This document shows positions 8,883 to 41,155 of a stretch of 64,000 bases of DNA, one piece after another; the stretch's first letter is position 1; each line of letters starts with the position of its first letter. A model generated the notes under the pieces. The model saw only the letters and a program-made list of their open reading frames with translations, had not been told where the DNA came from and did no database searches. Origin of the DNA: Candidatus Hydrogenedens sp. GTDB lineage: Bacteria; Hydrogenedentota; Hydrogenedentia; Hydrogenedentales; JAEUWI01. The stretch spans positions 74,343 to 138,342 of the forward strand of contig WGMK01000010.1 of NCBI GenBank assembly GCA_016125095.1, in the 5' to 3' direction. The position numbers and the translations under genes were made by a program.

Positions 8883-10928
8883 CTACGCCGTCTGGGGTTT
8901 TTTCGTCTTTCCGTGGTGGCCGGATTCCGGATTCGCCGCCGCGCGTTTGGGCAGCAGCGTATCGCCCATCAGCCACAGCGCGAATCCGGCCAGCAGCACG
9001 ATGCCCTCGAAGCCCCAGAAGAGGAAGAGGTTGAACCACACGCCCTTCACGAAGCCGTAGGAGTGCAGGCCCACGCCGAGGTTGTTCACGCCCCACCACG
9101 AGAAGGTGACGATGATGGCCATGATCACGGCGCCCATGTTGATGCCGAGCTCCTTGATGTAGCCGCCCATCTTGGCGTGCAGCACGCAGAGGCTCCACAG
9201 GCAGATCATCAGCGCGCCGTTCTCCTTGGGGTCCCAGCCCCAGAAGCGGCCCCAGCTGTCGTTGGCCCAGATGCCGCCGAGAATGGTGCCCACCACGGAG
9301 AACAGCAGCCCGAAGCAGAGCACGCCGTAGGTCATCTTGGTCACGTTCTGGTAGAACTTGCGGTCGGCAATCCGGATGCGCAGCACGCGTCCGATGATGT
9401 AGATGTGCGCGATCGCACCCGCCAGCATGCCCGCGGCGTAGCCGAAGGTCACGGTGGTCACGTGGGTCGACAACCAGAAGTTGGTGTCGAGCACGGCGAT
9501 AAGCGCGGGCATGGTATCCACGCCTTCCTTCATCTCGTAGCGGTTCGCGAGGAACATGCCCGCCGTGCCCAGCACGGCTGCCAGCGCAATTACGATGCGC
9601 TCCTTGTTCATCCATTCGATGATGAGCGCCGTCGCCACCGAGCACGCCGTGATGAACAGCACCGTCTCGTACAGCGTCGATACCGGCGGCCGCTCGCGGA
9701 TGATGCAGCGGATGGTGATACCGACGATGAGCAGGATGGTCGGAACCAGCACGGAGGCCTGCGTCGCATAGCGCCACCAGCGGTTGTACGGGAACACCCA
9801 CGAGAGCGCCACGATGAAGAAGGAAATCAGGTACAGCACCTGGCTGTTGGGAATCCACTTCATCCGGTAGAAGGAAACCTCCAGCGGCACCTTGTCGTAC
9901 TCGCCGCGCAGGCTGGCCGCGGCAGTCACCTTGCTGTGGAATTGCGCGGCCATCTTCTTGAACGCGTCGCGGTCGTTCACGAGCCCGGGCAGACGCTCGA
10001 GCAGACCAAGCATCTCGATGGGATTGTTCGAGGCCGCGTCGAGGTCCCGCACGTTGAAGGCGCGCGTGGCCATATCGGCCGGGGTCATCCAGGCCTGCTG
10101 GCTCGGCTCGGGGGGCGGAATCAGCGCCATGCCGTGGGTCGGGTTCAAGACGAATTCCAGCTCGTCCATCACACCGGCGATGGCCTTCGCTTCCTGGTTT
10201 ACCCGTTCCGGCGTCAGGCTGGTGCCCTCTTCGCGCAGCGCCTTCAACACTTCCGGCGCGCGCATCAGCAGCATGCTCAGGCTCGCGCCTCCGCGGTCGG
10301 TCAGTGCCGCGCCCATCGCAGAATCGGCCGGCGCCGTGTACGTGCGCCGCGCGAAATCGAAGTAATGCAGAATCTGATCGTACTGCAGGAAATTCTCGGC
10401 GAGATTGATGATCTGCTGCTCGACCGTCGTGCGGTCCGCCTGTTCCTTCTGGCGGTAGGCGTTGTCGAGCTCGAAGAGCTTCTGCGCGCCCTTTGCGATT
10501 TCGTTGTACGAATAGCGCGCGCGCTTCTTGTCGCCCGGGTCGATGCCGATGGCCGCCACGGCCTCGTAGTTGTCCACGATGAACTGGTGGTAATCCGCCG
10601 CGATTTCCGGGTAGAAGAGGCTGTACAGCAGCCAGGCAACCGGCTCTTTGATCTTGCCTTCCTCGCCCAGGTCGAGCGACCACTTGCCGTTGATCTTCAG
10701 CAGCGCGAAGCGGGCATAGGTATCCAGCGGCTTTACGCGGCCGCCGTCCTGCACCGGCAGCGTGGCGAACAGGTCCAGCGTCTCCTGGTCCCAGGGTTCG
10801 TAGGTAACGACCTTCGGGGCGGCATCGTCCGCGCTCGCGGCATCGTCCGCCGCCGGGGCGTCTTGCGCCAGAGCGCTGCCGGCGCAGAGCAGGCCCAGAA
10901 CTACAAGGGCGTGACTAAGCTTTTTCAT
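8883..10928 (-). CDS. ccsA: Cytochrome c biogenesis protein CcsA/ResC (System II) with an unusual N-terminal signal peptide plus a periplasmic domain of about 330 aa
   Basis: WGRFWGWDPKENGAL tryptophan-rich WWD motif and multiple TM helices. Signal peptide MKKLSHALVVLGLLCAGSALA. ATG at 10928 with AAGAGG upstream. Confidence 0.8.
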   Translation of the reverse strand: MKKLSHALVVLGLLCAGSALAQDAPAADDAASADDAAPKVVTYEPWDQETLDLFATLPVQDGGRVKPLDTYARFALLKINGKWSLDLGEEGKIKEPVAWLLYSLFYPEIAADYHQFIVDNYEAVAAIGIDPGDKKRARYSYNEIAKGAQKLFELDNAYRQKEQADRTTVEQQIINLAENFLQYDQILHYFDFARRTYTAPADSAMGAALTDRGGASLSMLLMRAPEVLKALREEGTSLTPERVNQEAKAIAGVMDELEFVLNPTHGMALIPPPEPSQQAWMTPADMATRAFNVRDLDAASNNPIEMLGLLERLPGLVNDRDAFKKMAAQFHSKVTAAASLRGEYDKVPLEVSFYRMKWIPNSQVLYLISFFIVALSWVFPYNRWWRYATQASVLVPTILLIVGITIRCIIRERPPVSTLYETVLFITACSVATALIIEWMNKERIVIALAAVLGTAGMFLANRYEMKEGVDTMPALIAVLDTNFWLSTHVTTVTFGYAAGMLAGAIAHIYIIGRVLRIRIADRKFYQNVTKMTYGVLCFGLLFSVVGTILGGIWANDSWGRFWGWDPKENGALMICLWSLCVLHAKMGGYIKELGINMGAVIMAIIVTFSWWGVNNLGVGLHSYGFVKGVWFNLFLFWGFEGIVLLAGFALWLMGDTLLPKRAAANPESGHHGKTKKPQTA

Positions 10929-12135
10929 GAGACTGCCTCTTCTTCTGCGCGCGCAGGTAAATCGCGAGCCGTTGCAGAAAGTGGATGGTAAGCCCGATAC
11001 CGATGATGTAGCAGGCGTACTTGGGCCATTGGTCCGCAGGGTTCTTCACCACGGAGAACACCGACGCGATCGGCGCGCGCGGATTGGTGGGGTCCTCCAC
11101 GAAGGAGGCCTGGAAGAAGGTGAATCCCTTGTGGCGGAGCGGTTCATTCATCTTGATTTCGACATCGCGCGAGGCATTGCCCTCGGTCATCGTCACGCGG
11201 CTTTCGAAATTGCTGGCCATGCCCGTGCGCGGGTGCTTCTGGTGGATGAACTTGTTCAGGGTAATCCGGAACGGCACGGGGAAGCGGTCATGCCGTAGGT
11301 CGATGGCGTAGCGCTGTCCCTGCACGGTCACGATCCACGGTGCCGCGGCCATGCCCCAGAGCAGGCCCACATGCGCGTCGCCGCCCTGCATCGTCGAAGC
11401 CGCGCCATGCGCCGAAGCCGCCGCGCCCGAGGCGTCCGCCGGGCGTTCCATCACCGTGGCGATCACGCCGGCCAGGTTGCGCTCGGCATCCTTCTGCATT
11501 TCCATCGGCTGCAGAATGACGCCGTCCACGCCCATCGCCATGATGGGCGGGGTCTGCTGCGGGGCGCAGTTGGGCATGTAGCCCTCAAGCAGCAGCGTGA
11601 AGGGCAGTTTTTCGGCGAAGAACGTACGGGTGTCCGAGGGGCCCATGTGCACGAATTCCTCGCCGGGAATCGTATAGGTCATCGGCGGGTCGGTGTCGAG
11701 CGAGACGATCTTGATGTTCCAGTCGTAGTAGCTCTGGAAGTGGTCGTCGCTTTCGCCCTCGTACAGGGTCATATGGCCGCTGGTCGAGAACTCATAGGTG
11801 ACGAAACCCGACACCAGCAGCAGCAGAATGCCGCCGTGGGCGATGAGCATGCCCGGCCGCGTCCAGCTCTTCGGCGCGCGCACAATGGCGCCGAGCGACA
11901 TGTTGATGAACAGCAGCACCATCAGCAGGTACACGCCGGGCAGCGGCAGGTGGAACCAGTCGTTGAATTCGTGAATCACGAACACCGACTCGAAGTACTT
12001 GCGCTGCACCTCGTAGAGGCCGGAGTCCACCTGCTCGATGGTACCGAAGAAGGTCAGCAACAAAAGGAAGAACAGCAGCACGCAGGCCAGGCCGTACGAG
12101 GCAAGGAAATTGACTACTCGTTTCAATATGTGCAC
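10915..12135 (-). CDS. ccsB: Cytochrome c biogenesis protein ResB/CcsB (System II)
   Basis: GTG start at 12135. N-terminal TM helix, large periplasmic domain and C-terminal TM helices, with ResB-like similarity. Overlaps ccsA by 14 nt. Confidence 0.75.
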   Translation of the reverse strand: MHILKRVVNFLASYGLACVLLFFLLLLTFFGTIEQVDSGLYEVQRKYFESVFVIHEFNDWFHLPLPGVYLLMVLLFINMSLGAIVRAPKSWTRPGMLIAHGGILLLLVSGFVTYEFSTSGHMTLYEGESDDHFQSYYDWNIKIVSLDTDPPMTYTIPGEEFVHMGPSDTRTFFAEKLPFTLLLEGYMPNCAPQQTPPIMAMGVDGVILQPMEMQKDAERNLAGVIATVMERPADASGAAASAHGAASTMQGGDAHVGLLWGMAAAPWIVTVQGQRYAIDLRHDRFPVPFRITLNKFIHQKHPRTGMASNFESRVTMTEGNASRDVEIKMNEPLRHKGFTFFQASFVEDPTNPRAPIASVFSVVKNPADQWPKYACYIIGIGLTIHFLQRLAIYLRAQKKRQSHEKA

Positions 12136-12168: not shown

Positions 12169-13377
12169 TTAGTGTATCGAGGCGCAGAACGCGCGGAAAT
12201 TGTCCCGCTGCGCCGCAACTTCGGCTTCCGGTCCGACCATCTTCACAAAGAGCGCCTGCGCATCCGTCACGCGCGCGGTGCCCAACATCATATAGCCCGC
12301 CGAGGCGCCCCCGCTCATCCCGGTATATTCGCCTGTGATTTCGATAATCGGCGAGGGCACGCCCGCGATATCCACGGTTTCGAGGGCCGCGATGGCTGCG
12401 CTGTCCAGCGCGGGCTGCCCCATCTGGCCGCGCCAGCGGTTCAGATTTGATTCCAAGCCGCCGCCCGTGCCGCCCAGAACCGCCACATAGCACTCGGTGT
12501 TCGGGCTGATATTGAACGTAACCGAACGCATCGGGCGGTCGCCGGCATTTTCCCAGCCGGCTGGCACTTCGTATTGCACGTTCGATGCGTCGATGGAAGC
12601 GCCCGAGCCCGACGGTTCCATGCCCGCTTCCGGCACCGGGGGAGTAGTCGGCTCCACCGCCGGGGTCGCCGGCGACGCCGCGGCCGCTGTAGCGCTCAAT
12701 CCGCCGGATTCCATAATGGACTGACAGAACTCATTGAATTGCGCCAACTGGTCGGCGAGCACGGCCTTCGGGCCGGTCATCTTCACAAAATAGGCACGGC
12801 CCTGGTCGATAAGAATCAGGCCGTACATCATGTAATCCGGCGCGGCCTCGGTACCCATGCCGGTGTAGGCCCCCTCGTACATGAGGAACTTTGCGCTCTT
12901 GAGCAGCAGCGGCTTTTCGGGAATCGCTCCCACCTGATCGTCGGTAATCGGCTCCAAGCCGATCTGGCGTCGCCACCGGTTGATGTTTTCGGTCAGGCCG
13001 CCGCCATCACCAGGCAGCACGGTGAAGTAGCACTCCGCCTCGGGGTGTCCCGAAACCTGCAGGTTGGCCAGGCGCATGCTCGTGGGAGCAAGTTCTTCCC
13101 ATCCCGACGGTACCTGCCAGGTGAACTCCGGCGCGGAGGAATCCGCACTCATGTCGCCTCCGGCCATCGGCGCGGCGCCCATGCCGGGCTTCACGTCGCC
13201 CACCTGAATGGGCTGTAGCCGCATGCGGTCCATCGTGCTCATGTCGCGTGCGGCCGTTTCTTCGCCGTTGGCCGGCCGCACGTCGGTGATTTCCTGTGTC
13301 GGCGTGTATTCTTTGCTGCAGCCGAAGGGAAGCGCTGCGAGCAGAACAAGACTACAAATAATTCGGAATTGTCGCAT
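12169..13377 (-). CDS. Lipoprotein with an internal tandem duplication (two domains of about 110 aa), at the head of the ccsB-ccsA operon
   Basis: Internal ATG at 13377 (MRQFRIICSLVLLAALPFGC lipobox). The duplicated units are ..TWQVPSGWEELAPTSMRLANLQVSGHPEAECYFTVLPGDGGGLTENINRWRRQIG.. and ..QYEVPAGWENAGDRPMRSVTFNISPNTECYVAVLGGTGGGLESNLNRWRGQMG.. Confidence 0.65.
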   Translation of the reverse strand: MRQFRIICSLVLLAALPFGCSKEYTPTQEITDVRPANGEETAARDMSTMDRMRLQPIQVGDVKPGMGAAPMAGGDMSADSSAPEFTWQVPSGWEELAPTSMRLANLQVSGHPEAECYFTVLPGDGGGLTENINRWRRQIGLEPITDDQVGAIPEKPLLLKSAKFLMYEGAYTGMGTEAAPDYMMYGLILIDQGRAYFVKMTGPKAVLADQLAQFNEFCQSIMESGGLSATAAAASPATPAVEPTTPPVPEAGMEPSGSGASIDASNVQYEVPAGWENAGDRPMRSVTFNISPNTECYVAVLGGTGGGLESNLNRWRGQMGQPALDSAAIAALETVDIAGVPSPIIEITGEYTGMSGGASAGYMMLGTARVTDAQALFVKMVGPEAEVAAQRDNFRAFCASIH

Positions 13378-13634
13378 TACCAGACTCCTGACCCGGCGAG
13401 GGTATCCCGCTGAACAATGGCGGGTCTTCTGTAGATATTCGCCGCACATCTTTAATGGTGTCGCGGACACTCGGTAAGTCTACTCAGCGTCGGCGCTAGG
13501 GTGCAACGTAAACAGGCTTTTCAAGTGTTTACAGCGCGACGCATTCCTTCAAGGGCGTGATCCGCAGTTTCCATTAGACGCGGTCCGCTTTGGCGTGCTT
13601 ACAAGACCGCGTAACCCCGGCGAGGGTGTCGTTG

Positions 13635-13640
13635 TATACT
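13635..13640 (+). promoter_or_regulatory. Candidate -10 element (TATACT) for the graspetide precursor, about 22 nt upstream of the ATG; GGAGG SD at 13650-13654
   Basis: gttgTATACTgcaataaccGGAGGtaactgccATG. Confidence 0.35.
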
Positions 13641-13662
13641 GCAATAACCGGAGGTAACTGCC

Positions 13663-13836
13663 ATGAAGCGAACCAAACCGCTCACGAAACGCTTGTTCAT
13701 CGAGGAACTCGAGACCCCGCGACCGGCCGATTCGGGCATCGTGACGACGCTCGCCATCGGCGAAGAATGCGACAAGGGCGACAGCAAGGGCATCGTGACC
13801 ACGTTCGCGCTCGGCGAAGAGTCCGAACTCAGCTAG
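13663..13836 (+). CDS. Graspetide (omega-ester-containing RiPP) precursor peptide, plesiocin-like group 2: leader with an LFIEELE motif and two TTxxxxEE core repeats (57 aa)
   Basis: MKRTKPLTKRLFIEELETPRPADSGIVTTLAIGEECDKGDSKGIVTTFALGEESELS. Strong SD GGAGG 8 nt upstream. This ORF is absent from the ORF track because it is under 60 aa. Its stop lies 3 nt before the ATP-grasp start. Confidence 0.7.
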   Translation: MKRTKPLTKRLFIEELETPRPADSGIVTTLAIGEECDKGDSKGIVTTFALGEESELS

Positions 13837-13839
13837 CGC

Positions 13840-14769
13840 ATGCCGGGTTCAGATTCCGGCGCGGTATGGCTGTTCGGCGGCACGGGCGATGCGCAAGTGC
13901 TGCGCGTGGCGTCCGCGCTCAAAGCGCTGGGCAGCCGTCTGGTGCTGTTCGATACGGCCGCGTTTCCGGAGCAGGAACGCTGGAGCCTGTCGCTCGACGG
14001 ACTCCATGTTGCGGGTGCGCTGGTGCCGTGGCCGCGCTCGGTGTATGTGCGCGGCCTCGCCTGCCATGCCCTGATGCCGTCGCTGGAAGAAACGCTGTTG
14101 AAACATCCCCGGCGTGTGGTCGCAGCGATGGAAGAGAAGCGCGCGTTCTTGCATTCTCTGCTGCTGATAGCCCGGGACCGCGGGGCCCTGCTCGTGAATT
14201 CCCCGGAGGTCAATGCCCAGCACAGTCGCAAGCCTTACCAGCTGGCGCTGTTCCGGACCGCCCAATTGCCGGTGCCGGAAACCCTTTCGACGAACGACCC
14301 CGATCTCCTGAAGGCCTGGCTGCAGGACATTGGTGCGGCGGTTTACAAGCCGCTGGCCGGCGGCGCGACCGTGGTACGGGTGTCCCCGGAGGACGTGTGC
14401 GAGGAGCGGCTTTCAGCGCTCGACGCGGCCCCGGTGTTGTTTCAGCAATTGATTGAGGGCGTGCCGGTCCGCGTCTATGTTGTCGGGGGTGCTATTGTGG
14501 CGGCGGCCGAGATTCATTCAAAGGAACTGGATTACCGTCGCGGCGAGGAGGCCGTCGCACCGACGCAGCTTACGCCGGAAGAGACGGATATCGCAGTCCG
14601 GGCGGCGGCTGCAACGCACATGCCGTTCAGCGGGGTCGATTTGATACGGGCGGCAGGCAAGACCTGGCTGCTGGAGTGCAACCCCTCGCCGATGTTCGCG
14701 GCCTTTGAACTGAAGACCGGACTCGATGTGGCCGGACCGCTGGCCCGCCTATTGGCGGGCGCATCCTGA
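13840..14769 (+). CDS. RimK-type ATP-grasp ligase; predicted graspetide macrocyclase
   Basis: 309 aa with ATP-grasp fold features (VYKPLAGGATVVRV, LFQQLIEGVPVRVYVVGG, GVDLIR...WLLECNPSPMF). Directly follows the precursor. Confidence 0.75.
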   Translation: MPGSDSGAVWLFGGTGDAQVLRVASALKALGSRLVLFDTAAFPEQERWSLSLDGLHVAGALVPWPRSVYVRGLACHALMPSLEETLLKHPRRVVAAMEEKRAFLHSLLLIARDRGALLVNSPEVNAQHSRKPYQLALFRTAQLPVPETLSTNDPDLLKAWLQDIGAAVYKPLAGGATVVRVSPEDVCEERLSALDAAPVLFQQLIEGVPVRVYVVGGAIVAAAEIHSKELDYRRGEEAVAPTQLTPEETDIAVRAAAATHMPFSGVDLIRAAGKTWLLECNPSPMFAAFELKTGLDVAGPLARLLAGAS

Positions 14770-14831
14770 ACAAAGAGCGGGGCCGCCCCGCGAATCGGGA
14801 CGGCCCCGGCGTGGTCAATTATTCGGTCGCG

Positions 14832-15116
14832 TTATGCGCAGCAGGCCGCGTCGGCCGTGCAGCATTCAGCCTTCGGAGCGTCGCAGCAGGCCGAAGCCGG
14901 GGCGCAGCAAGCCGCGTCGGCAACACAGCAATCGGCGGCGCTGGCACTGCAGCAGGCCGTCGCGCAGGCATCGGCGCAGCAGTTACCCGTGCAGTTGCAT
15001 GCCGCACAGGCGCAGCTTGCGCCGCAGCAGTCGCAGCTGGCCGAACCGGCCCACGCAAAGCCACCCAATACGGCCACGGCCGCGAACACGATGGAGAGAG
15101 CTATCCACTTTTTCAT
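14832..15116 (-). CDS. Secreted Cys-rich mini-protein (94 aa; mature part about 71 aa with 22 Cys and CC/CxC motifs)
   Basis: Signal peptide MKKWIALSIVFAAVAVLGGFAWA followed by GSASCDCCGASCACAACNCTGNCCADACATACCSASAADCCVADAACCAPASACCDAPKAECCTADAACCA. Confidence 0.45.
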   Translation of the reverse strand: MKKWIALSIVFAAVAVLGGFAWAGSASCDCCGASCACAACNCTGNCCADACATACCSASAADCCVADAACCAPASACCDAPKAECCTADAACCA

Positions 15117-15240
15117 GGTAGGAACCTTTCGTCGTTCCGCATCGCAATGCGGGAGTTGTTGAAATCAAAGCCAGGTTTCGGTGGGGGATGCGCCGGAATT
15201 TCCGCAGTCGGAACAGCGGTCCGGGCGCATCAAGGCTTTG

Positions 15241-15690
15241 TCAACAACGGAAACGCGAAAGGACAGTACAGCGCTCGGCACTGGTGCAGCCGGACGTAAA
15301 GACCGGCATTACGACGGTACGTTCCGCCGGCAGCGCGATGGCAGGAGCAAGCGCGACCATGCTGAGCGGCGCGCTTTCCTGCGACACGATGCTGCGGTTG
15401 CGGTCGGGCAAGGTCGCCGGGTCCGCACCATCCGAGGATTTCATACTGCAATGGCAGGACGACGCGTGGGCGGTTTCGACACCCTGAGGGGCATCGCAGC
15501 AGGAGGAGGTGCGCGTTGCTTCCTCTGCAGGTGCAGAGCAACAGGAGCTTTCAGCAGAGGTGGCGCATCCGGAGCAACTGCTTTCGACCGCGCAGGCATC
15601 GCCGCAGGCGCACGCCGCTGCATGCAGCGGAGCGCCTACCATGGCCAGTACCATGGCGAGTGCAGCCATCCATCGGGTCGTGTTCAACAT
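15241..15690 (-). CDS. Secreted Cys-rich protein 2 (149 aa), tandem with the previous gene
   Basis: Internal ATG at 15690 with AGGAG upstream. MLNTTRWMAALAMVLAMVGAPLHAA signal peptide, then ACACGDACAVESSCSGCATSAESSCCSAPAEEATRTSSCCDAP...SSCHCS. Confidence 0.45.
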   Translation of the reverse strand: MLNTTRWMAALAMVLAMVGAPLHAAACACGDACAVESSCSGCATSAESSCCSAPAEEATRTSSCCDAPQGVETAHASSCHCSMKSSDGADPATLPDRNRSIVSQESAPLSMVALAPAIALPAERTVVMPVFTSGCTSAERCTVLSRFRC

Positions 15691-15859
15691 TACGAAACGT
15701 TTACTCCTGTCTGCATTGTACACCAGACCGGTAGAAACTGCACGGAAATTCTTCCGCGGCAGCAATTCATGTCGTCCGGCCTCAAAAAGCGCTTGGTTCA
15801 GTACGGCGCGCATCTGCTACTATCCAGCACGGTTTCGACTGCGGAGAAGGAAACGGACC

Positions 15860-20334: not shown

Positions 20335-23300
20335 TCAGGCGGAGGGCGTGTCGGCGTCGGCGCGGCCCCGGTTCAAGATGCCCCCGAAGAAATTGAAGCA
20401 CCAGCGCTGGAAATCGTCGAGGAAGGTGTAGAACACCGGCACGATGACCAGCGTGAGCACGGTGCCCACGGTCAGGCCGCCGATCAACGCGCGGCCCAGC
20501 CCCGCGAAGGTGGCCGCGCCGCCCGTCGTCGCGAGCGCCAGCGGCACCAGGCCGAGAATGGTGGTGATAGCGGTCATCATCACGGGGCGGAAGCGGTTAC
20601 AGCCCGCCTCGATGATCGCGGGATTGCGTGTGCCGGTCTCGCGCCGCACCTGGTTGATGTGGTCGATAATCACAATGCCGTTGTTCACGATGATGCCGGC
20701 CATGAGAATGCAGCCGATAAGCGTCACGCTGTCGAATTGCGTGTTCGTGAAATACAGCGCCCATACCGCGCCCGCCAGCGCGATCGGCACAGTCGTCAAG
20801 ATGGACAATGGGAAGAAGTACGACTCGAAGAGCGCGGCCATCACGAGGTAGATGAGGATGACCGCCATCAGCATGGTCGAGAGGAAGCTGAACGCATTCT
20901 CGTCCAGTTCCATCAGCGAATCGCCGAGGTCGATGCCATAGCCTACCGGCAGGTCGAAGGACTTCGCCGCCACCTCCAGGTCGCGCTTGATCTGGCCCAT
21001 GTCGTCGGACTCTGCGCGCGCCGTGATGTTGACGATGTTCTTGCCGTCCACGCGCTGTATGGTCGCGGCGGCCGGGGCCTTGCCGTATTCCACCAGCTGG
21101 TTCACGGGCACCAGTTCCCCCGTGGCCGAGAGCACCTTCACATTGTCGAGGTTGGCCTTCGATTCGCGGTCTTCTTCGCGGAACTGCGCCCACACGGGAA
21201 TCTCGCGTCCGCCCTGCTTCAGGAAGGGCAGGCGCGAGCCGCGCAGCGCGGACTGCACCGTCATCGCCAGCGCTTCGGGATTCACGCCGCGGCCTTCGGC
21301 CAGCGCCCCGTCGATATGCAGCTGTATCTCCGTCTGGTCCTTTTCCGTGTCGAGCTCGACGCCGTTGATGTTCTCGATATTGCTGAGTACCGTCTTGAAC
21401 CGGTTGGCGTAGTCCTCGAGCATCGCCGTGTCGTCGCCCCGCATGCGCAGCGACACCGCCGATTCATTGCCCGACTCGCTCGTGTCCGTCAACTCGAAGT
21501 TCAGCGTCGCGCCCGGCACCAGGTTGGGCAGCCGCTGCGCCAGAATCTTCATCACGTCCTCGGTCACGAACGGCGGATTGGCGCCATAGGGGTGGGGATC
21601 TTCCGGCGCGTAGAGATAGATATCGATGACACCGCCGCCGAGTTCGTAGAACGTCAGGATGCTCTTGATGCCAAGTTCGTCTCGCCAGTTATCGAGGTTC
21701 TCCTCGACCGTGCCGAACAAGTCCTGGGCCATCGCCATGTCGTAGTTCTGTTCGAGCGCCACGTCGACTTTGATTTCGCGCGTGTCCAGCTTGGGCAATT
21801 CCCGCATGCCCACGCTCTGGAAAGGGATGTAGTAGGTGATGGCGCCGAAGGCGGCCAAGGCGCACATCGTCGCAAGGCGGTTGTGCAGCGACCAGTCGAG
21901 CAGTTTGCCGTAGCCCTGCACCACCCACTCCACCGGCTGGAACCAGGAAGACGCGGACTTGCCTTGGGCGGCGGCCTTTTCGCCGCGGCTGCCCGCCATG
22001 CGCGCCAGCAGGCGCTGGAACAGGTTCTCCTTCGAGGAGGCCATGCGGCTCATCGCAAGCGGCACAAGGGTCAGGGCGATGACCAGGCTGCCGCCCAGCG
22101 CGACGATAAGCGGCAGGCCGAGCTGTTCCATGAACACCGACATCTGCCCGGTTTCCATGTAGAACATGGGCACGAACACCACCCAGGTGGTGGCGGTGGC
22201 GGCAAAGATAGCCAGGCCCACTTCGGCCGCGCCGTTGATGGCGCTCCGTTTGGCGGTTTCGCCCAGTTCCCGGTGCCGGATGATGTTCTCCACGACGACG
22301 ATGGCGTTGTCGACGAGCATGCCTACGGCGATGATCATCGACACCATGGTCACCAGATTCAGGCTCATGTCCATGAAGAACATGAACACGAAGGCGACCA
22401 GCAGCGAGGTGGGGATGGACAGCGCCACGATGATGGTGGGGCGGAAGCGGTGGAGGAAGAAGAACAGCACGCCCAGCGCCATGACGCCGCCGTACACGCC
22501 CTGCTTGAAGAGGTTGTTCAGCGCCGAGAGAATCAGTTCGGACTGGTCGAAAAAGATGCGCAACTGCACATCCTTGAACATCTGCGTGCCGAGCAGCCGG
22601 TTGATTTCCTTGTTCACACGGCGGCACACGTCCACCGTGTTGGCCTCCGATTCCTTGACGATGAGCAGTACCGCGCCGCCCTTGCCGTCCAGCGCCACAT
22701 GCGCCTGCGGGTCGCGGTCGCTGTAGGTCACGTCTGCGATCTCTTTCAACCGAAGCCCATTCGGCGACACGATCAGGTTTTGGATGTCCTCGATGCGCCG
22801 GTATTCGCCCACGGATCGGACGTAGTATTTGGTGTCCTCGTCCTGAATCTGACCGAGACTCAGGTTCATGCTGCTTTCGCCGATCGCCGTGATGACCTGC
22901 CCTAGGGCGAGGTTTTGGCTCTCCAGCCGGTCCTGGTCGAACTCGATCAGGATTTCGTTTTCCTGGATAGGCGTAATGATTTCGATATTGGCCACACCCT
23001 CGAGCCGTCGCAGCTGCGGCTCGATGAACGTACGCACCTCGTGGATGAACTGCTCCTCGTCGCCGCTGCGGAACACGCCGAGCGCCACTACGGGTATCGA
23101 GCGCGAACTGAACCGCTGCAGCAGCATCTTGTCCGCCTCGGCAGGCAGTTTCAGTTTCAGGCGCTCCATGCGGTCGCGCACCTCGGCCGACACCTGCGTG
23201 ATGTTCGTGTCGAGCGAGAACTGCAAGCTCGCGAAACAGCCGTCGGCATCGGAGATGGTGCGGATACGGCGCAGCCCTGGTATGGTGCGCATCTCGCCCT

Positions 23301-23508
23301 CGAGCGGAATCGCGATTTGCTGTTCCACCTGTTGCGGCGAGGCGTTGGGGTAGGGCACCGAGACGCCGATGAAGGGGCGGTCCACATCCGGCAGGAACTT
23401 CAGCGGCATGCGGTACCAGGCAATGCCGCCCAGCGCCAGCATGCTGATGGACAGCATCACCACGGTGACCGGCTTGCGGAGGGCGAATTCAGGGAGCGAG
23501 AACTTCAC
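20335..23508 (-). CDS. Efflux RND transporter permease subunit (HAE1/MdtC-like), second permease of the operon
   Basis: GTG start at 23508 forms a GTGA overlap with the upstream gene's stop, giving MKFSLPEFALRKPVTVV... About 1057 aa with 12 TM helices and two large periplasmic loops. Confidence 0.85.
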   Translation of the reverse strand: MKFSLPEFALRKPVTVVMLSISMLALGGIAWYRMPLKFLPDVDRPFIGVSVPYPNASPQQVEQQIAIPLEGEMRTIPGLRRIRTISDADGCFASLQFSLDTNITQVSAEVRDRMERLKLKLPAEADKMLLQRFSSRSIPVVALGVFRSGDEEQFIHEVRTFIEPQLRRLEGVANIEIITPIQENEILIEFDQDRLESQNLALGQVITAIGESSMNLSLGQIQDEDTKYYVRSVGEYRRIEDIQNLIVSPNGLRLKEIADVTYSDRDPQAHVALDGKGGAVLLIVKESEANTVDVCRRVNKEINRLLGTQMFKDVQLRIFFDQSELILSALNNLFKQGVYGGVMALGVLFFFLHRFRPTIIVALSIPTSLLVAFVFMFFMDMSLNLVTMVSMIIAVGMLVDNAIVVVENIIRHRELGETAKRSAINGAAEVGLAIFAATATTWVVFVPMFYMETGQMSVFMEQLGLPLIVALGGSLVIALTLVPLAMSRMASSKENLFQRLLARMAGSRGEKAAAQGKSASSWFQPVEWVVQGYGKLLDWSLHNRLATMCALAAFGAITYYIPFQSVGMRELPKLDTREIKVDVALEQNYDMAMAQDLFGTVEENLDNWRDELGIKSILTFYELGGGVIDIYLYAPEDPHPYGANPPFVTEDVMKILAQRLPNLVPGATLNFELTDTSESGNESAVSLRMRGDDTAMLEDYANRFKTVLSNIENINGVELDTEKDQTEIQLHIDGALAEGRGVNPEALAMTVQSALRGSRLPFLKQGGREIPVWAQFREEDRESKANLDNVKVLSATGELVPVNQLVEYGKAPAAATIQRVDGKNIVNITARAESDDMGQIKRDLEVAAKSFDLPVGYGIDLGDSLMELDENAFSFLSTMLMAVILIYLVMAALFESYFFPLSILTTVPIALAGAVWALYFTNTQFDSVTLIGCILMAGIIVNNGIVIIDHINQVRRETGTRNPAIIEAGCNRFRPVMMTAITTILGLVPLALATTGGAATFAGLGRALIGGLTVGTVLTLVIVPVFYTFLDDFQRWCFNFFGGILNRGRADADTPSA

Positions 23509-26500
23509 TCGGTTACTTCCGACTCGCCCCACTTCCCGAACAGATAATAGGCCATCGGAATCACGAGCAGGGTAAGAATGGTGGCGCAGGAGAGGCCCGA
23601 CATGACCGTGATGGCCATGGGATAGCGCAGTTCAGAACCGTCGCCGGTGCTTTCCAGCATGGGCAGCAGGCCCAGCACCGTGGTCACGGTGGTCATGATG
23701 ATGGGCCGAAGGCGCGCCTGGCCGGCCTCGACCACCGCGCGTTCCATGTCGTAGCCGCGGCGGCGCAGCTGGTTGATGTAGTCGACCAGCACGATCGCGT
23801 TGTTCACCACGATACCCGCCAGCACGATGCCGCCGAGGAAGACCATGATACTGACGTCGGTGTGCGTGTACTCGAGCGCGTAAATCACGCCCACGAAGGC
23901 GAGCGGCACGGAGAACATCACCAGCACCGGGTGCCAGACAGACTCGAACTGGCAGGCCATGACGACGTACACGAGGAAGATCGCCAGCGCGAGCGCGAAC
24001 TGCAGGCTCGCGTACGAGGTCTCCAGTTCGCGGAACTGGCCGCCGGGCAGGAAGTAGTAGTCCTTGGGACGCGGCACGGTTTCAACCGCCGCGAGGATTT
24101 CATTGGACACGGCCCCCAGGTCGCGGCCCGACACGTTGGCCGTAATCAACACCACCTGGCGCTGGTCGATGCGGCGGATTTCGCTGGGCCCTTCCTGCAC
24201 GATGATGCTCGCCACGGCTTCCAGCGGAATCGGGCTGGCGCCCGTGCTGACCGACATCTTCTTCAGGTCTTCCACGCTCTGCAGGAACCGTTGGTCGGTG
24301 CGCACGCGGATCGGAATTTTTTCGCCGTAGCTGCTGAACTGGGTGGGCACGTCGCCCTGTACCTCGGCGCGGAGGCGCTGGGCCACCTGGCCGGAGGTGA
24401 TACCCTTCGCGGCAAGCAGCTCGCGGTCGAGCTCGATGACGACTTCCGGATAGCCGGGCTTCACGCTCAGCTCGGCGTCCTCGACGCCGGGAATCTTCTG
24501 CACCTCGGCCAGCGCCAGACCGCCCACGTCGCGGAGGATATTCAGATCCTCGCCGACCAGCTGCAGCTCGATGGCGGTCTTGAAGCTGAACATGGAAGGC
24601 AGCGTAAAGCTGATTTCCGAGGTGGCGAACTGAATGATCTTCTCGCGCAGTTCGTCGATGATCGTGCCCTGCCGTTCCGCGTTTTCTTCCGGGTTCTTCA
24701 GCAGCACGGTAAACTGCGCGATGTTCTCGCCGCGGTCCTCGCTCGAGCTGGTGTCTTCCTGGCCGATCTCCACGGTCACGGTGTCGATGTCGTCGCGTTG
24801 CAGCACGAGCGATTCGATACGCGAGGCGCGCTCCTCGGTCTCTTCCAGGCGCGTGCCGGGACGCGCTTCCATGCGGATGCCGAACTCGCCCTGCTGCATG
24901 GGCGGAATCAACTCGGAGCCCAGTTCGGTCGCGGTATAGAAGGCGTGCGCGGAAATCGCCGTCATCGCCAGCAGGATAATCGGACTGAAGCGCAGCGAAT
25001 GCGTAAGCAGTATCCGGTAGCCTTCGCGGAATCCCTCGAAAAAGAAATCGAAGATGCGCAGCGGCAGCCACAGGATAACCCAGAAAACCTTGCCCGCGAC
25101 GAACCACGCCAAGCCGAGCAGGGCGACAATCACGAACAGCGCCGTGACGAAGATCGCCTGCGCCAGCTTGAGAACGAGCTGCAGCAGGTAGACCGGCAGC
25201 AGCAGCGGCAGCGAGACGATTCCGAACAACCCGCCAACCACCCCGCCCACGGAGCGCGAGGCAACCATGCCGCGCGCTGCGCGCAGGCTGGGACCAAAGG
25301 TGTCGCCGCTGGATTCGCGCAGGTAGTCCCACACGTAGCGCAGGGCATTTGCCGGAGCCGCCAGAACCGCGCCCGCCATACCCATGCCCTTTTCGTCGCG
25401 GTTCTCGCGATAGGCGCGCAGCATCCAGATGACCTGCCGGTCGGCGTGCACGGCCACGCTCCGGCGCGACACGACCAGCGGAATCAGGTAGAGCGCGGTG
25501 AGCAGCGAGGCCAGCAGAGAGAAGGTTACAGTGAGTGCCAGGTCGCCGAAAATCTGGCCGGCGATACCCTCGACGAAAGCAATGGGGAAGAATACGGCCA
25601 CCGTGGTCAGGGTCGATGCGGTAACGGCGCTGGCCACTTCGCTCGTGCCGCGCTCGGCCGCGTCCAGCACGCCGTCGCCTTCCTCGCGGCAGCGGAATAC
25701 ACTCTCGAGCACCACGATGGAGTTGTCCACCAGCATGCCGACGCCCAGCGCGAGGCCGCCGAGCGACATGATGTTCAGCGAGATCACATCGCCGAAGATG
25801 CCGCCCATGTACATGGGAACAAAGGTCGCGATGACGGAAATCGGAATCGCGACGCCGATGATCATCGTGGACTTGAGTTCCTTCAGGAACAGGAAGAGCA
25901 CGATAAGCGCGAGCAGGCCGCCCATCAGCGTGGCGTTCTGCACTTCATCGATGGCACCCACAATAAAGCGGGATTGGTCGCTGATCAGCGTCTGGTGAAT
26001 CCCCGGGGGAAGCCGGTCGAGCAGGTTGTCGGGCTTGGTATCCACGGGTGCGTCGGAAGCTGCGCCGGTGTTTCCTCCGTCCGCCTGCTTCTGCTTCATC
26101 CGAGCCATGATCTGCTGCTGAAGTTTTTCCACGGGGCCGAGTTCGCGCTCGAAGCCCAGTAGTTCCTTCACCTCCGAGCAGACCTCGACCGTGTTGGCGT
26201 CGCCCTCTTTGTAGATGTCCAGCGCCACCGCCTCGCGGCCATTGATGCGCACGACGGACTCGCGTTCCTTGGTGCCCATGAACACGTCGGCCACGTCGCG
26301 CAGGCGGAATTGCGCTCCGGCCGGCGTCGAGATGATGCTGTCGCCGATCTCGTCGACCGACTGGAATTCGTTGAGCGTGCGCACGAGGTACTCGGTGCGG
26401 CCTTCCTGCAGGCGGCCGCCGGAAAGATTGATGTTCTGCTGCGCCAGGCTCTGCGAAAGGTTCTCCAGCGTGAGGCCCAAGTTCTTGATCTTCTGGGCGT

Positions 26501-27149
26501 CGACGAGGATCTGGATTTCTTCTTCCTGACCACCCTTGAGCTGTACCTGTGCGATGCCGTTTTTGGCCTCGAGATCGCTCTTGAGGTGGCGTTCCGCAGC
26601 GTCGCGGATGGCAGTGAGCTGCACGCGCTCCAGCTTCATGATTTCTGCCGGTGTCGCTGCGCCGTCGGAATTGTCGATAGGCGGCGCGGTGATGGCCACG
26701 CGGATGACCGGATCGAGCGTGGGGTCGTAGCGCAGAATCACCGGTTTCTCGGTCACGCCCTCGGGCGCGCTGAACAGGTCGATGCGGTCGCGCACGTCCT
26801 GCTGCGCCACGTTCATATCCGTGGACCAGGTGAACTCGAGCACGATTTCAGACAGGCCGGGCGAGGAAATGCTGCTGATCTGCACCATGCCGCTTACGAT
26901 GGAGAGAAACTCTTCCAGCGGCCGGGTGACCAGTTTCTCCACGTCTTCCGGGGCCGCCCCTTCGTATTCGGTGCGCACCGTGAGCGTGGGGTAGGAGATA
27001 TCCGGCATCAGGTTGACTGGCAGCTGCTGATAGGAGCGCCAGCCGAACACGATGATGGTCAGGAAAAGCATCGCCATCGTGACCGGCCGCCGGATGGCGA
27101 GACGGTAACGCTGCGGATCGAGTTGTTCGGGGGCCGAAGGTTCGCTCAT
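23505..27149 (-). CDS. Efflux RND transporter permease subunit (MdtB-like) carrying an extra insertion of roughly 170 aa in its mid region
   Basis: ATG at 27149. 1214 aa with RND features throughout. The inserted hydrophobic and charged segment (..HADRQVIWMLRAYRENRDEKGMGMAGAV...LPLRIFDFFFEGFREGYRILL..) lies between the two pseudo-repeats. Confidence 0.85.
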   Translation of the reverse strand: MSEPSAPEQLDPQRYRLAIRRPVTMAMLFLTIIVFGWRSYQQLPVNLMPDISYPTLTVRTEYEGAAPEDVEKLVTRPLEEFLSIVSGMVQISSISSPGLSEIVLEFTWSTDMNVAQQDVRDRIDLFSAPEGVTEKPVILRYDPTLDPVIRVAITAPPIDNSDGAATPAEIMKLERVQLTAIRDAAERHLKSDLEAKNGIAQVQLKGGQEEEIQILVDAQKIKNLGLTLENLSQSLAQQNINLSGGRLQEGRTEYLVRTLNEFQSVDEIGDSIISTPAGAQFRLRDVADVFMGTKERESVVRINGREAVALDIYKEGDANTVEVCSEVKELLGFERELGPVEKLQQQIMARMKQKQADGGNTGAASDAPVDTKPDNLLDRLPPGIHQTLISDQSRFIVGAIDEVQNATLMGGLLALIVLFLFLKELKSTMIIGVAIPISVIATFVPMYMGGIFGDVISLNIMSLGGLALGVGMLVDNSIVVLESVFRCREEGDGVLDAAERGTSEVASAVTASTLTTVAVFFPIAFVEGIAGQIFGDLALTVTFSLLASLLTALYLIPLVVSRRSVAVHADRQVIWMLRAYRENRDEKGMGMAGAVLAAPANALRYVWDYLRESSGDTFGPSLRAARGMVASRSVGGVVGGLFGIVSLPLLLPVYLLQLVLKLAQAIFVTALFVIVALLGLAWFVAGKVFWVILWLPLRIFDFFFEGFREGYRILLTHSLRFSPIILLAMTAISAHAFYTATELGSELIPPMQQGEFGIRMEARPGTRLEETEERASRIESLVLQRDDIDTVTVEIGQEDTSSSEDRGENIAQFTVLLKNPEENAERQGTIIDELREKIIQFATSEISFTLPSMFSFKTAIELQLVGEDLNILRDVGGLALAEVQKIPGVEDAELSVKPGYPEVVIELDRELLAAKGITSGQVAQRLRAEVQGDVPTQFSSYGEKIPIRVRTDQRFLQSVEDLKKMSVSTGASPIPLEAVASIIVQEGPSEIRRIDQRQVVLITANVSGRDLGAVSNEILAAVETVPRPKDYYFLPGGQFRELETSYASLQFALALAIFLVYVVMACQFESVWHPVLVMFSVPLAFVGVIYALEYTHTDVSIMVFLGGIVLAGIVVNNAIVLVDYINQLRRRGYDMERAVVEAGQARLRPIIMTTVTTVLGLLPMLESTGDGSELRYPMAITVMSGLSCATILTLLVIPMAYYLFGKWGESEVTE

Positions 27150-27176
27150 GAGTTTACTCGCCGCATGCCGGGCCGC

Positions 27177-28442
27177 TTAGCGCAGCATCTTTTCGCGGCG
27201 GTCTTCTTTCGGCTCGATCTTGAAGCGCTGTTCCTTCGCCCGCGCCAGCGCTTCCTCCGCCGTCATGTTCACGTTCGCCAGCACCGCGTCGCGCAGGTTG
27301 GTCAGCTCCACCGGCGAACCAGGCTTGAGCGTGTGCTGGCCCAAGGTGACCAGCAGCGTGTTCTCGTCGATGCCCGAGACCACCTCGACATACTCGCTGT
27401 CTTCCAGGCCGGTCTCGATTTCAACCTTACGTGCCACCAAGGCGGGCTTGTCGGTGCCGGGCGTCTCGGCCGGCTGCGCCGCCTCGACCTGCTCCTGCTC
27501 GACTGCCTCCGGCTTGTCCGCATTCTCCACCACCATTACATAGGAACGCCCGTTTTCTTCCAGCATCGAGTCCTTCTCGATTGCCAGGGCGTTCTCGCGG
27601 ATGTCCATCACCAGCTTCACGCGGGCGAAAGCCGAGTCCTTCAGCTTCTCCTTGTCGGCCTCGTTGAAGTCCAGCAGCACGCGTACCGTGCCACTCGCGG
27701 GGTCGACCGCCGGGCTGATGCGCCGCACCACCGCTTCAAATTCCTCGCCGGGCGCGGAATCGACCGTCACGTTGGCCTTTTGGCCTTCCTTCAGGTTGCG
27801 GAGTTCTTTCTCCGGCGGCGTAATGGGCAGTACGTAGGAATCGGGATTGACGATCGAGAATGCCGGCATGCCGTTGGCGACCATCATGCCGCGCTGAATC
27901 GCGCGCTGGGTGATGACGCCATCGATAGGCGCCAGGATGGTCTGGTTCTCCAGCTGGAACTGCTGCAACTTGAGCGTCGCCACGGCCTGATCGTAGGCGA
28001 ACTTGGCGTTGTCGGCCTCGAAGGGGCTCAGGATACCGCGATCGGACTGCTCCCGAGCCTTGTCCAGCTGGTATTTGTTCATCTCGACCGAGACGCGCGT
28101 CTGCTGAATCTGCGCCTCGAGTTCGTCGCGATCGAGTTTGGCGAGAACCTGGCCTTCCTTGACCTTATCGCCCTCTTCCACCATCACCTCGAGGCATTCG
28201 CCCATGCCCTTCGAAATAACCTCCACGCGTTCCTCGGCCATGATACGGCTGGTGGTCTCGAAATACGCCGCGATGTCGCGGTGGGTAGGCAGCCCGGCCT
28301 CGACCGGAATCCGCACCTCGACCTCGGTCTTGCTCTTCGGATCCTTCTCAGGGTCGTTCACCTCCCCCGATACCGGCGAGTCGCAAGCCGTCACGCTGAC
28401 GAGAATCAGCCCAGTCGCCAGTAGAAGAAAGAGTCGGGTCAT
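27177..28442 (-). CDS. Efflux RND transporter periplasmic adaptor subunit (membrane fusion protein) lipoprotein
   Basis: Internal ATG at 28442 with GGAGGGG upstream. MTRLFLLLATGLILVSVTAC lipobox. HlyD/AcrA-like coiled-coil and beta-barrel regions. Confidence 0.85.
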   Translation of the reverse strand: MTRLFLLLATGLILVSVTACDSPVSGEVNDPEKDPKSKTEVEVRIPVEAGLPTHRDIAAYFETTSRIMAEERVEVISKGMGECLEVMVEEGDKVKEGQVLAKLDRDELEAQIQQTRVSVEMNKYQLDKAREQSDRGILSPFEADNAKFAYDQAVATLKLQQFQLENQTILAPIDGVITQRAIQRGMMVANGMPAFSIVNPDSYVLPITPPEKELRNLKEGQKANVTVDSAPGEEFEAVVRRISPAVDPASGTVRVLLDFNEADKEKLKDSAFARVKLVMDIRENALAIEKDSMLEENGRSYVMVVENADKPEAVEQEQVEAAQPAETPGTDKPALVARKVEIETGLEDSEYVEVVSGIDENTLLVTLGQHTLKPGSPVELTNLRDAVLANVNMTAEEALARAKEQRFKIEPKEDRREKMLR

Positions 28443-40896: not shown

Positions 40897-41155
40897 AGTC
40901 ACCAAAGTATAAAACATCCGCGCGAACACTATCCGACATGCAAAGTCACGCGGCGCGGAGCGCCGTGCGGGGGCGTTACACCGCAGAGCGTTGTAACGAG
41001 GGTAGGAGCGGTGTAACGAGAATCAAAATCATATTCGCAACTTCCGGATTCGTAGGTAGTTAGGGGCGCGTGTCGTGGCATTCTTGCCTCGGAAAATGCT
41101 ACGCTCGGGGGCCGCGTTGGTTGGCACGCGGGCGATTTGCACCGGCCGGAGCATT

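Follow-up and report, generated by a model that had tools for sequence, protein, structure and literature searches.

Metallothioneins, among them bacterial SmtA/BmtA and mycobacterial MymT, are small, modular proteins with about 30% cysteine in CC, CxC and CxxC motifs and with few or no aromatic residues. No metal-free fold is expected of them, and they fold only around metal clusters (PMC7558416). Csp1 is an exported, cysteine-lined protein that stores many Cu(I) ions outside the cytoplasm (PMC7558416). Its signal is of the twin-arginine translocation (Tat) type, and the protein forms a rigid, pre-folded bundle of four helices, in which about 120 residues include about 13 cysteines. The bufferins, the oxazolins and other precursors matured by MNIOs (oxidative enzymes that depend on multinuclear non-haem iron) are periplasmic copper chelators, and are small cysteine proteins with a signal peptide for the general secretion (Sec) pathway (PMC12452194, PMC11626156). 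This analysis concerns two consecutive open reading frames (ORFs), ORF2 and ORF1, on the minus strand of a 64,000-nucleotide (nt) stretch of DNA from an uncultured Candidatus Hydrogenedens sp. of the phylum Hydrogenedentota (contig WGMK01000010.1); the whole stretch is termed the window. Both ORFs are predicted to encode exported, cysteine-rich proteins. The pair is known in kind, in that poly-cysteine binding proteins have been described, and is new as a putatively exported, lineage-restricted family outside the SmtA/BmtA membership.

The pair shares with metallothioneins the cysteine content and motifs, the small size, the modular build and the paucity of aromatic residues, however it does not belong to the Pfam Metallothio_Pro family. 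Searches with hmmscan against Pfam-A and NCBIfam (E ≤ 1) gave no match for ORF1 or ORF2, and phmmer against PDB sequences, SmtA 1JJD included (E ≤ 10), gave no family match, the one match being to an antibody loop and due to chance. All Rfam matches were likewise below threshold and attributable to chance. The family was at first not recognised, and it remains without a Pfam, NCBIfam or PDB match. SmtA displays a zinc-finger fold with His ligands, whereas the mature ORF1 sequence has no His. ORF1 and ORF2 carry putative Sec-type signal peptides, whereas the bacterial metallothioneins described so far are not known to have an export signal.

Csp1 is comparable in being exported and rich in cysteine, but the signal peptides of ORF1 and ORF2 have KK or a single R or K and no RR motif, there is Pro within the repeats, and neither protein has a predicted fold or a Pfam family match. 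The genes for MNIO precursors stand directly before those for an MNIO (DUF692) and a DUF2063-type partner, and the precursors fall into the DUF2282, Buf_6/12_Cys, EGKCG or CxxxxC families; the ORF1/ORF2 locus has no such gene or motif. The pair does display a putative Sec signal and conserved cysteine motifs, but these are common to many unrelated exported proteins. Graspetide precursors have a leader that the ATP-grasp recognises and a core of Thr/Ser/Lys and Asp/Glu repeats, and are encoded in the orientation of the enzyme. They differ as well, since ORF1 and ORF2 are on the strand opposite to the neighbouring ATP-grasp gene, have signal peptides and share no motif with such precursors. The chlamydial OmcA/OmcB proteins are also a small and a larger exported cysteine-rich protein encoded in tandem, with a possible N-terminal Cys at the cleavage site. 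They have no sequence similarity to the pair, their cysteine content is two to three times lower, any lipobox of the pair would be non-canonical, and the phylum is another.

Sequence and conservation of the pair

The window was compared with three loci from close relatives: L083 (Joint Genome Institute, JGI, 3300050184), L084 (a JGI metagenome) and L082 (a 2-kb Logan contig, partial). The features of the pair are listed below, with amino acid (aa) positions where they apply. Coordinates are those of the window unless a locus is named.

15241–15690, minus strand: ORF2 coding sequence, 149 aa and stop; syntenic copies in L083 and L084, partial copy in L082
15613–15690, minus strand: ORF2 signal peptide, aa 1–26, MLNTTRWMAALAMVLAMVGAPLHAAA; likely cleaved just before Cys27 (AxA followed by C in every homologue)
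15442–15612, minus strand: ORF2 cysteine-rich acidic domain, aa 27–83, ACACGDAC to SSCHCSM; C27, C29, C39, C50, C51, C64, C65, C79 and C81 invariant
15241–15282, minus strand: ORF2 C-terminal motif SAxRCxxLSRFRC and stop; LSRFRC and stop identical in the window, L083 and L084, DNA block conserved
15704–15708, minus strand: ORF2 ribosome-binding site AGGAG, 13 nt upstream of the ATG at 15690
15691–15813, minus strand: N-terminal extension in a public 190 aa call of ORF2 (P0001); not conserved, coding score weak
15166–15240, minus strand: stable stem-loop directly after the ORF2 stop, without a convincing U-run
15117–15162, minus strand: ORF1 leader TCAACAACnCCCGC ... GAAAGGTTCCTACC; about 25 nt before the ATG near-identical in three loci, intergenic surroundings diverged
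14832–15116, minus strand: ORF1 coding sequence, 94 aa and stop; without a call in any gene set retrieved for these contigs
15048–15116, minus strand: ORF1 signal peptide, aa 1–23, MKKWIALSIVFAAVAVLGGFAWA; AxA site kept as AWA before G or ATA before N
14982–15035, minus strand: ORF1 N-terminal cysteine cluster CDCCGAxCACxxCxC, aa 28–45; all Cys invariant in three sequences
14835–14981, minus strand: ORF1 repeat region of CC-X5/6 units, with CC every 7–9 residues; ends in the conserved CCT[AT]DAACCA
14768–14808, minus strand: predicted intrinsic terminator 3′ of ORF1, a 13-bp GC-rich stem and a CTCTTTGTTC tail
L083:10001–10447, L084:1118–1561 and L082:1–141 (partial), same strand relative to the locus as in the window: ORF2 homologues
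L083:10537–10779 and L084:1652–1894, ORF2 strand: ORF1 homologues, 80 aa each, 58%–59% identical to ORF1

The ORF1 sequence is MKKWIALSIVFAAVAVLGGFAWA followed by GSASCDCCGASCACAACNCTGNCCADACATACCSASAADCCVADAACCAPASACCDAPKAECCTADAACCA, and the residues after the cleavage site start with GS. The original prediction, which was made from the DNA letters, had described a 94 aa ORF with 22 cysteines in a 71-aa mature part arranged as CC, CxC and CxxC motifs; coordinates, strand and sequence all match. These cysteines make up 31% of the part after AWA and form eight CC, three CxC and one CxxC motifs. Counted from the first Cys, the cysteine share is 33%–35% across the ORF1 sequences, with six to eight CC, three CxC and one or two CxxC. 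The mature sequence has zero aromatic residues, zero His, a single aliphatic residue (one Val) and a net charge of −6. The CC doublets begin at positions 19, 28, 36, 43, 50, 58 and 65 (numbering from the first Cys), and a 21-nt tandem DNA repeat at nt positions 14838–14921 corresponds to the doublet series.

Such a composition is rare in its surroundings. In the window's confident genes, 1.0% of the 16,405 codons are for cysteine. A six-frame translation of the window and 1.13 Mb of related Hydrogenedentota loci gives only one further ORF that reaches 14 Cys per 40 aa, a (CCP)n DNA tandem repeat; the remaining cysteine-rich ORFs of this survey are Arg/Cys/Pro-rich off-frames of real genes. The (CCP)n case is a long (CCP)n/(SDE)n-type repeat at L010:9177–9998 (minus strand), immediately upstream of a TIM-barrel gene in a distant relative, and is probably non-coding.

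ORF2 reads MLNTTRWMAALAMVLAMVGAPLHAAA followed by CACGDAC...SSCCSAP...SSCCDAP...SSCHCSM..., then an Ala/Pro/Ser-rich stretch and the end ...ERCTVLSRFRC. The layout is thus a signal peptide, a cysteine-rich acidic N-terminal half, a variable Ala/Pro-rich linker and a conserved C-terminal RCxxLSRFRC. The 149 aa length, the ACACGDAC, SSCCSAP, SSCCDAP and SSCHCS motifs and the AGGAG Shine-Dalgarno sequence that were first reported for ORF2 are all found as stated. In public collections ORF2 is represented by a single 190 aa “hypothetical protein” (P0001) from the Candidatus Hydrogenedens sp. metagenome-assembled genome, and the search matched only that protein itself. The additional 41 codons at 15691–15813 are probably untranslated, judging from the alignment. 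Of the gaps in the comparison with the relatives (9–10 and 26 nt), some are not divisible by three, and AAG stands there in place of the 15813 ATG. The 149 aa start is therefore preferred. The aligned relatives of ORF2 have AAGGA 9 nt before their ATG.

Signal peptides were judged by heuristic criteria, i.e. the charge of the n-region, the Kyte-Doolittle hydropathy over 12 residues and the AxA site. By these measures every homologue of both ORFs has a putative Sec-type signal peptide, as had been proposed. That of ORF1 has a KK n-region and a 12-residue hydrophobic core of 2.8–2.9. Those of ORF2 have R or K in the n-region, a 12-residue core of 2.4–2.9 and the putative cleavage sites AAA, ATA or AMA, each before C. 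In the relatives all 11 replacements in the ORF1 signal peptide (11/11) exchange one hydrophobic residue for another, with a mean BLOSUM62 score of +0.36. The sequence APLxAxAC at the ORF2 cleavage region is conserved in L082, L083 and L084, and the ORF2 signal peptide may include a non-canonical lipobox. Compared with the lipobox [LVI][ASTVI][GAS]C, ORF1 has SA[SA]C and ORF2 has A[ATM]AC, and neither has Leu, Val or Ile at −3.

When ORF2 was compared with 1.84 billion representative proteins in an exhaustive HMMER scan, one other cluster was found (two clusters in total). It is represented by P0122, which has 148 aa, is 42% identical (E-value = 2.5e-15) and is encoded on L083. The L083 locus is fully syntenic with the window: gpmA, the TIM-barrel gene, the gene for a 125 aa protein with a Tat signal (Tat-125), the ORF2 homologue, the ORF1 homologue, an ATP-grasp gene with its precursor on the opposite strand, a 409-aa gene, ResB and CcsA follow one another. 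The ORF1 homologue here is an uncalled 80 aa ORF between the ORF2 homologue and the ATP-grasp gene, with the sequence MKKWIAITLMMLLMVAVGGFATANASAACDCCGADCACTVCGCADGACGDCCDAPCCDAEAASCCAPGAACCTADAACCA. A scan of JGI metagenomes with the alignment of the two ORF1 sequences gave the third locus, L084, which has both genes and the convergent ATP-grasp gene. L082 contains the first 47 codons of an ORF2 homologue beside the Tat-125 gene, and its TIM-barrel protein is 89% identical to that of the window. The proposed check of the gene pair in relatives thus gives both ORFs in L083 and L084 and part of ORF2 in L082.

The homologues also retain the cysteine spacing, contrary to the refuting outcome (no such homologues) that the original prediction had named. 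In ORF1, 17 of the 18 alignable cysteines are kept in L083 and L084, and the loss of one is made up for by a gain four residues from it; roughly half of the non-Cys residues of the mature region are changed in these relatives. The sole large indel in ORF1 is 45 nt long and in frame, and the relatives have two fewer CC doublets. ORF1 has 22 cysteines in the window and 18 in each of the relatives, and the ORF2 homologue in L083 has 15. ORF2 is 45% identical between the window and L083/L084. Nine of the 11 cysteines in the N-terminal half of ORF2 are invariant, as are CSMxSxD beside the Cys columns, LPDRxR and the terminal RCxxLSRFRC. The ratio of nonsynonymous to synonymous substitution rates (dN/dS) is 0.30–0.55 for ORF1 and 0.17–0.32 for ORF2, compared with 0.24–0.33 for the Tat-125 gene, 0.14–0.18 for the ATP-grasp gene and 0.07–0.14 for the graspetide precursor. 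Both ORFs are thus under purifying selection but are fast-evolving.

The pair is specific to a small Hydrogenedentota clade and is a lineage-restricted orphan family with one member unannotated. Eighty Hydrogenedentota loci with a TIM-barrel gene at 64% identity or less have none of ORF1, ORF2, the Tat-125 gene and the ATP-grasp gene near it; synteny is therefore lost at that distance. No match was found in genome contigs with the neighbouring AP_endonuc_2 protein as single query, in metagenome contigs with ORF1 as single query, or for the pair in viral contigs (IMG/VR).

The coding strand of ORF1

ORF2 is unambiguously coding, and there is very little doubt that it is a real gene. ORF1 has the same architecture, lies directly downstream on the same strand and is in all likelihood a real minus-strand gene too. 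The alternative is that ORF1 is non-coding and that the real feature is either an ORF on the antisense strand or a conserved non-coding GCTGC-rich repeat, so that only ORF2 is a gene. Several observations agree with this alternative. All six frames are open across ORF1, and the antisense frame at 14857–15162 (plus strand) encodes a Gln/Ala-rich sequence of 101 aa. This antisense ORF has a more ordinary pattern of G+C at the three codon positions (GC1/GC2/GC3) and a codon log-odds score of +6.8, compared with −24 for the ORF1 sense frame. The counts of synonymous and non-synonymous differences give ORF1 no advantage, as they are nearly the same in both frames: 13/32 (sense) and 12/34 (antisense) between the window and L083, and 4/5 (sense, within the coding sequence) and 4/8 (antisense) between L083 and L084. 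The synonymous rate (dS) of ORF1 between L083 and L084 is 0.12, which is below the 0.22–0.44 of its neighbours. In addition, ORF1 is not called by any gene caller.

Codon log-odds and GC3 are indecisive for ORF1 because the rarity of Cys penalizes the true frame and because the antisense frame shares the wobble positions. The substitution counts are equal because third codon positions are shared. The openness of the antisense frame follows from the genetic code, as the ORF1 sense frame has no Tyr, His or Gln codons.

Other evidence distinguishes the two strands. The mean BLOSUM62 score of replacements over the whole of ORF1 is −0.06 in the proposed frame and −0.9 to −1.4 in the other five. The ATG, the ribosome-binding-site block (GAAAGG at 15130–15125, 8 nt before the ATG) and the stop of ORF1 are exactly conserved in the relatives, and the changes in its signal peptide keep hydrophobic residues hydrophobic. 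The ORF1 homologues of L083 and L084 are also followed by a hairpin whose U-rich tail is on the strand of ORF1 (z-scores −3.0 to −4.0), thus the U-run is present on this strand in 3/3 loci. The antisense ORF lacks a conserved start (GTG at differing places), a TAG in L083 corresponds to Tyr in L084, and its C-terminus differs by locus. A non-coding ORF1 is accordingly improbable. The claim that both ORFs are genuine genes of the minus strand rather than GC-rich antisense noise is borne out by the conserved starts, stops, ribosome-binding sites and terminator and by the in-frame indels.

The antisense frame has been annotated in one case. A JGI call at L083:10506–10754 (minus strand) is an 82 aa Gln/Ala-rich ORF, antisense to the ORF1 homologue, and its equivalent is open in the window and in L084 as well. 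Calling of the antisense frame is probably a systematic error that comes from the shared wobble positions. No gene is called over ORF1 in the Logan contig. ORF1 is absent from public protein collections, in which a word-indexed protein search recovers no match, not even ORF1 itself.

Possible functions of the putatively exported proteins

Of the functions considered, the one tentatively favored is that ORF1 and ORF2 encode metallothionein-like thiolate binders of soft metal(loid)s that act outside the cytoplasm, a reading suggested by composition and already raised in the original prediction. Each precursor would start with a cleavable Sec-type signal peptide, cross the inner membrane in an unfolded state and then be cleaved. 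The mature chains, of about 70 residues for ORF1 and about 120 for ORF2, would be acidic poly-cysteine without a hydrophobic core. Thiolates of the CC, CxC and CxxC motifs would wrap Cu(I), Zn/Cd, Hg or As(III)/Sb(III) into clusters, the polypeptide folding only around the bound ions, and the outcome would be metal(loid) buffering or sequestration in the periplasm or at the cell surface.

ORF1 has the composition that broadly characterizes metallothioneins (small size, about 15%–35% Cys, CC/CxC/CxxC motifs and few or no aromatics); a metallothionein in function would also bind several d10 metal ions in thiolate clusters. Its spacers are small or acidic and its repeat number varies between loci; selection is on the cysteines, and the spacers and repeat number drift. 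AlphaFold2 gives a mean pLDDT (predicted local distance difference test) of 56 for ORF1 (single sequence) and 40 for ORF2 (two sequences). Only the signal-peptide helix reaches a block-mean pLDDT of about 65, and neither an autonomous fold nor a confident bundle is predicted. With one-third Cys, these motifs, modular repeats, no aromatics and no autonomous fold, ORF1 fits the operational definition of a metallothionein, and binding of metal(loid)s outside the cytoplasm is therefore favored. The odd number of cysteines (15) in the ORF2 homologue of L083 means that not all of them are disulfide-paired within the chain.

Vicinal Cys pairs together with a third Cys are the classical ligand set for As(III)/Sb(III). 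The Logan twin of the window comes from the metagenome of a 30 °C thermal spring in New Zealand (PMC7692377). From the ligand set and the geothermal source it may be speculated that metalloids are candidate ligands.

A number of points weigh against this reading. In the gene map of the window, no metal-sensing regulator, efflux gene or chaperone is adjacent to the pair; the only heavy-metal-type gene seen is a CPC P-type ATPase 23 kb off, to which no link is shown. To our knowledge the known bacterial metallothioneins (SmtA, MymT) carry no export signal. An oxidizing periplasm would tend to turn such thiols into disulfides, and with its even Cys counts (22, 18, 18) ORF1 could be fully disulfide-paired. 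Metallothionein spacers, moreover, are more typically Lys or Ser than acidic. The low pLDDT, finally, may simply reflect the near-absence of an alignment.

The main rival to metal binding is that the two are disulfide-rich exported proteins. These would be either cross-linked components of an envelope or matrix, as are the Chlamydia cysteine-rich proteins and the keratin-associated proteins, or a compact secreted toxin, bacteriocin or signal peptide. The Sec-type signal peptides of both ORFs agree with it, and the tandem of a small and a larger exported cysteine-rich protein resembles the chlamydial omcA/omcB arrangement. The number of cysteines is even in 3/3 ORF1 sequences, and the gain of a Cys four residues from the one lost keeps it at 18. 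A Cys is also at or near the predicted cleavage site in both (AxAC in ORF2 and SA[SA]C in ORF1), thus a lipoprotein anchor is conceivable. However, any lipobox would be non-canonical, as position −3 is not Leu and, in ORF2 of the window, position −4 is His. With 33%–35% Cys, no aromatic residues and only the one Val, cystines alone would be left to build a fold of ORF1, and the ORF2 homologue of L083 has the odd count of 15. The repeat number varies by two CC units, which is hard to reconcile with a defined disulfide knot, though a cross-linker would tolerate it. There is no Pfam match at E ≤ 1 to the chlamydial cysteine-rich proteins or to a toxin family. A disulfide function is somewhat less likely than metal binding.

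The third possibility is that the ORFs are precursors of RiPPs (peptides made by the ribosome and modified after translation), with cysteines converted by a maturase, i.e. an MNIO as for bufferins and oxazolins, a radical-SAM enzyme forming thioethers, or the neighbouring ATP-grasp enzyme. A Sec signal peptide on a small cysteine-rich protein is the hallmark of an MNIO substrate (PMC12452194), and in 3/3 loci the convergent neighbour encodes a RiPP enzyme, the graspetide ATP-grasp. In known cases, however, the genes for the MNIO and its partner come directly after the precursor gene (PMC12452194). No DUF692/MNIO, DUF2063, radical-SAM, YcaO or lanthipeptide enzyme is present among the genes examined in Pfam gene maps that reach about 10 kb to either side of the pair in the window and L083 (the short ORFs of the window were left out of the maps), and there is no match to DUF2282 or other bufferin families. 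The ATP-grasp has a conserved precursor of its own, with an LFIEELE leader and TTLAxGEE cores, that is transcribed from the strand opposite to ORF1 and ORF2. The RiPP-like alternative named in the original prediction is thus weakened, as these maps contain no maturase besides the unrelated ATP-grasp, and it is highly improbable.

The surrounding locus and its significance

The pair is convergent with the graspetide precursor (13663–13836) and the ATP-grasp gene (13840–14769) on the plus strand; the gene map of the window confirms the convergence that had been reported. On the other flank, the pair is divergent from the Tat-125 gene, a xylose-isomerase-like TIM-barrel gene (AP_endonuc_2) and gpmA. 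ORF2 and ORF1 are probably co-transcribed, since there is no terminator between them and a single strong one after ORF1. The stem-loop directly after the ORF2 stop is present in 3/3 loci (L083:10445–10495 and L084:1559–1610), with z-scores of −3.5 in the window, −3.0 in L083 and −4.1 in L084. Its sequence differs between loci but the structure is retained. This stem-loop may modulate read-through into ORF1, or may set the ORF2:ORF1 ratio by acting as a partial terminator or on mRNA stability.

The window (15813–15825), L082, L083 and L084 share an identical 13-nt block, GGATAGTAGCAGA, amid intergenic DNA that is diverged and has many indels. The block may be an operator or promoter element common to both divergent transcription units.

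The graspetide locus is at 13663–14769 (plus strand) in the window, at L083:11105–12242 (minus strand) and at L084:1959–3134 (minus strand), and is thus kept in 3/3 loci. The precursor has 57 aa, with the LFIEELE leader and the cores TTLAIGEE and TTFALGEE, and is directly upstream of the ATP-grasp gene in the same orientation. The ATP-grasp maturase belongs to TIGR04187 (E-value = 1.6e-28). Because the clade is so narrow, the adjacency of the pair and the graspetide locus in 3/3 lineage members reflects shared ancestry only and does not imply a functional link. L083 has about 250–280 nt of extra DNA (10850–11104) between the terminator of the ORF1 homologue and the end of the ATP-grasp gene, which is absent from the window and from L084.

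Beyond the graspetide locus, the window has at 12169–13377 (minus strand) a gene for a 402 aa protein with a lipoprotein-like N-terminus (LAALPFGC) and without a Pfam match; its L083 copy (12439–13668) has 409 aa. The protein is made of two internally homologous halves (36% identity, E-value = 1.5e-25). Its gene is directly upstream of ResB and CcsA, which belong to system II cytochrome c maturation, and is conserved in L083 (59%) and partly in L011. A link of the pair to ResB/CcsA was considered and rejected: neither ORF has CxxCH, and the oppositely oriented graspetide locus lies between.

Two more distant regions of the window encode transport proteins. The ORF at 38728–40917 (minus strand) encodes a P-type ATPase of 729 aa in which CPC (at residue 381), DKTGT and HP are present; near its N-terminus is GLDCAEE, a segment that resembles a metal-binding site. 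By these features it is a heavy-metal (P1B) pump. At 20335–28442 (minus strand) there are two tandem AcrB-family resistance-nodulation-division transporters of 1040 and 1214 aa, with a membrane-fusion protein (HlyD_D23) before them. The second of these pumps (1214 aa) is unusually long.

If the metal-binding reading of the ORF2–ORF1 pair is correct, it would provide a metallothionein-type protein that acts outside the cytoplasm and is delivered there by the general secretion pathway, a case not found in the literature searched, as well as a compact thiolate scaffold, tunable by its repeats, of possible use in metal or arsenic capture. The pair may even belong to an unseen class of Sec-exported “exo-metallothioneins”, disordered chains of heptad repeats (CC-X5) by which As(III)/Sb(III), Hg or Cu(I) of geothermal water would be trapped in the periplasm of an anaerobe, a family made invisible by gene callers that reject its composition and pick the antisense frame; this proposal is doubtful. 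The very narrow distribution of the pair, in one small Hydrogenedentota clade, limits its significance. The annotation blind spot does not depend on function. In the gene sets retrieved, three independent assemblies have no call for a conserved gene that is 33% Cys, and one of them has its antisense annotated; similar poly-Cys genes may be widely missed.

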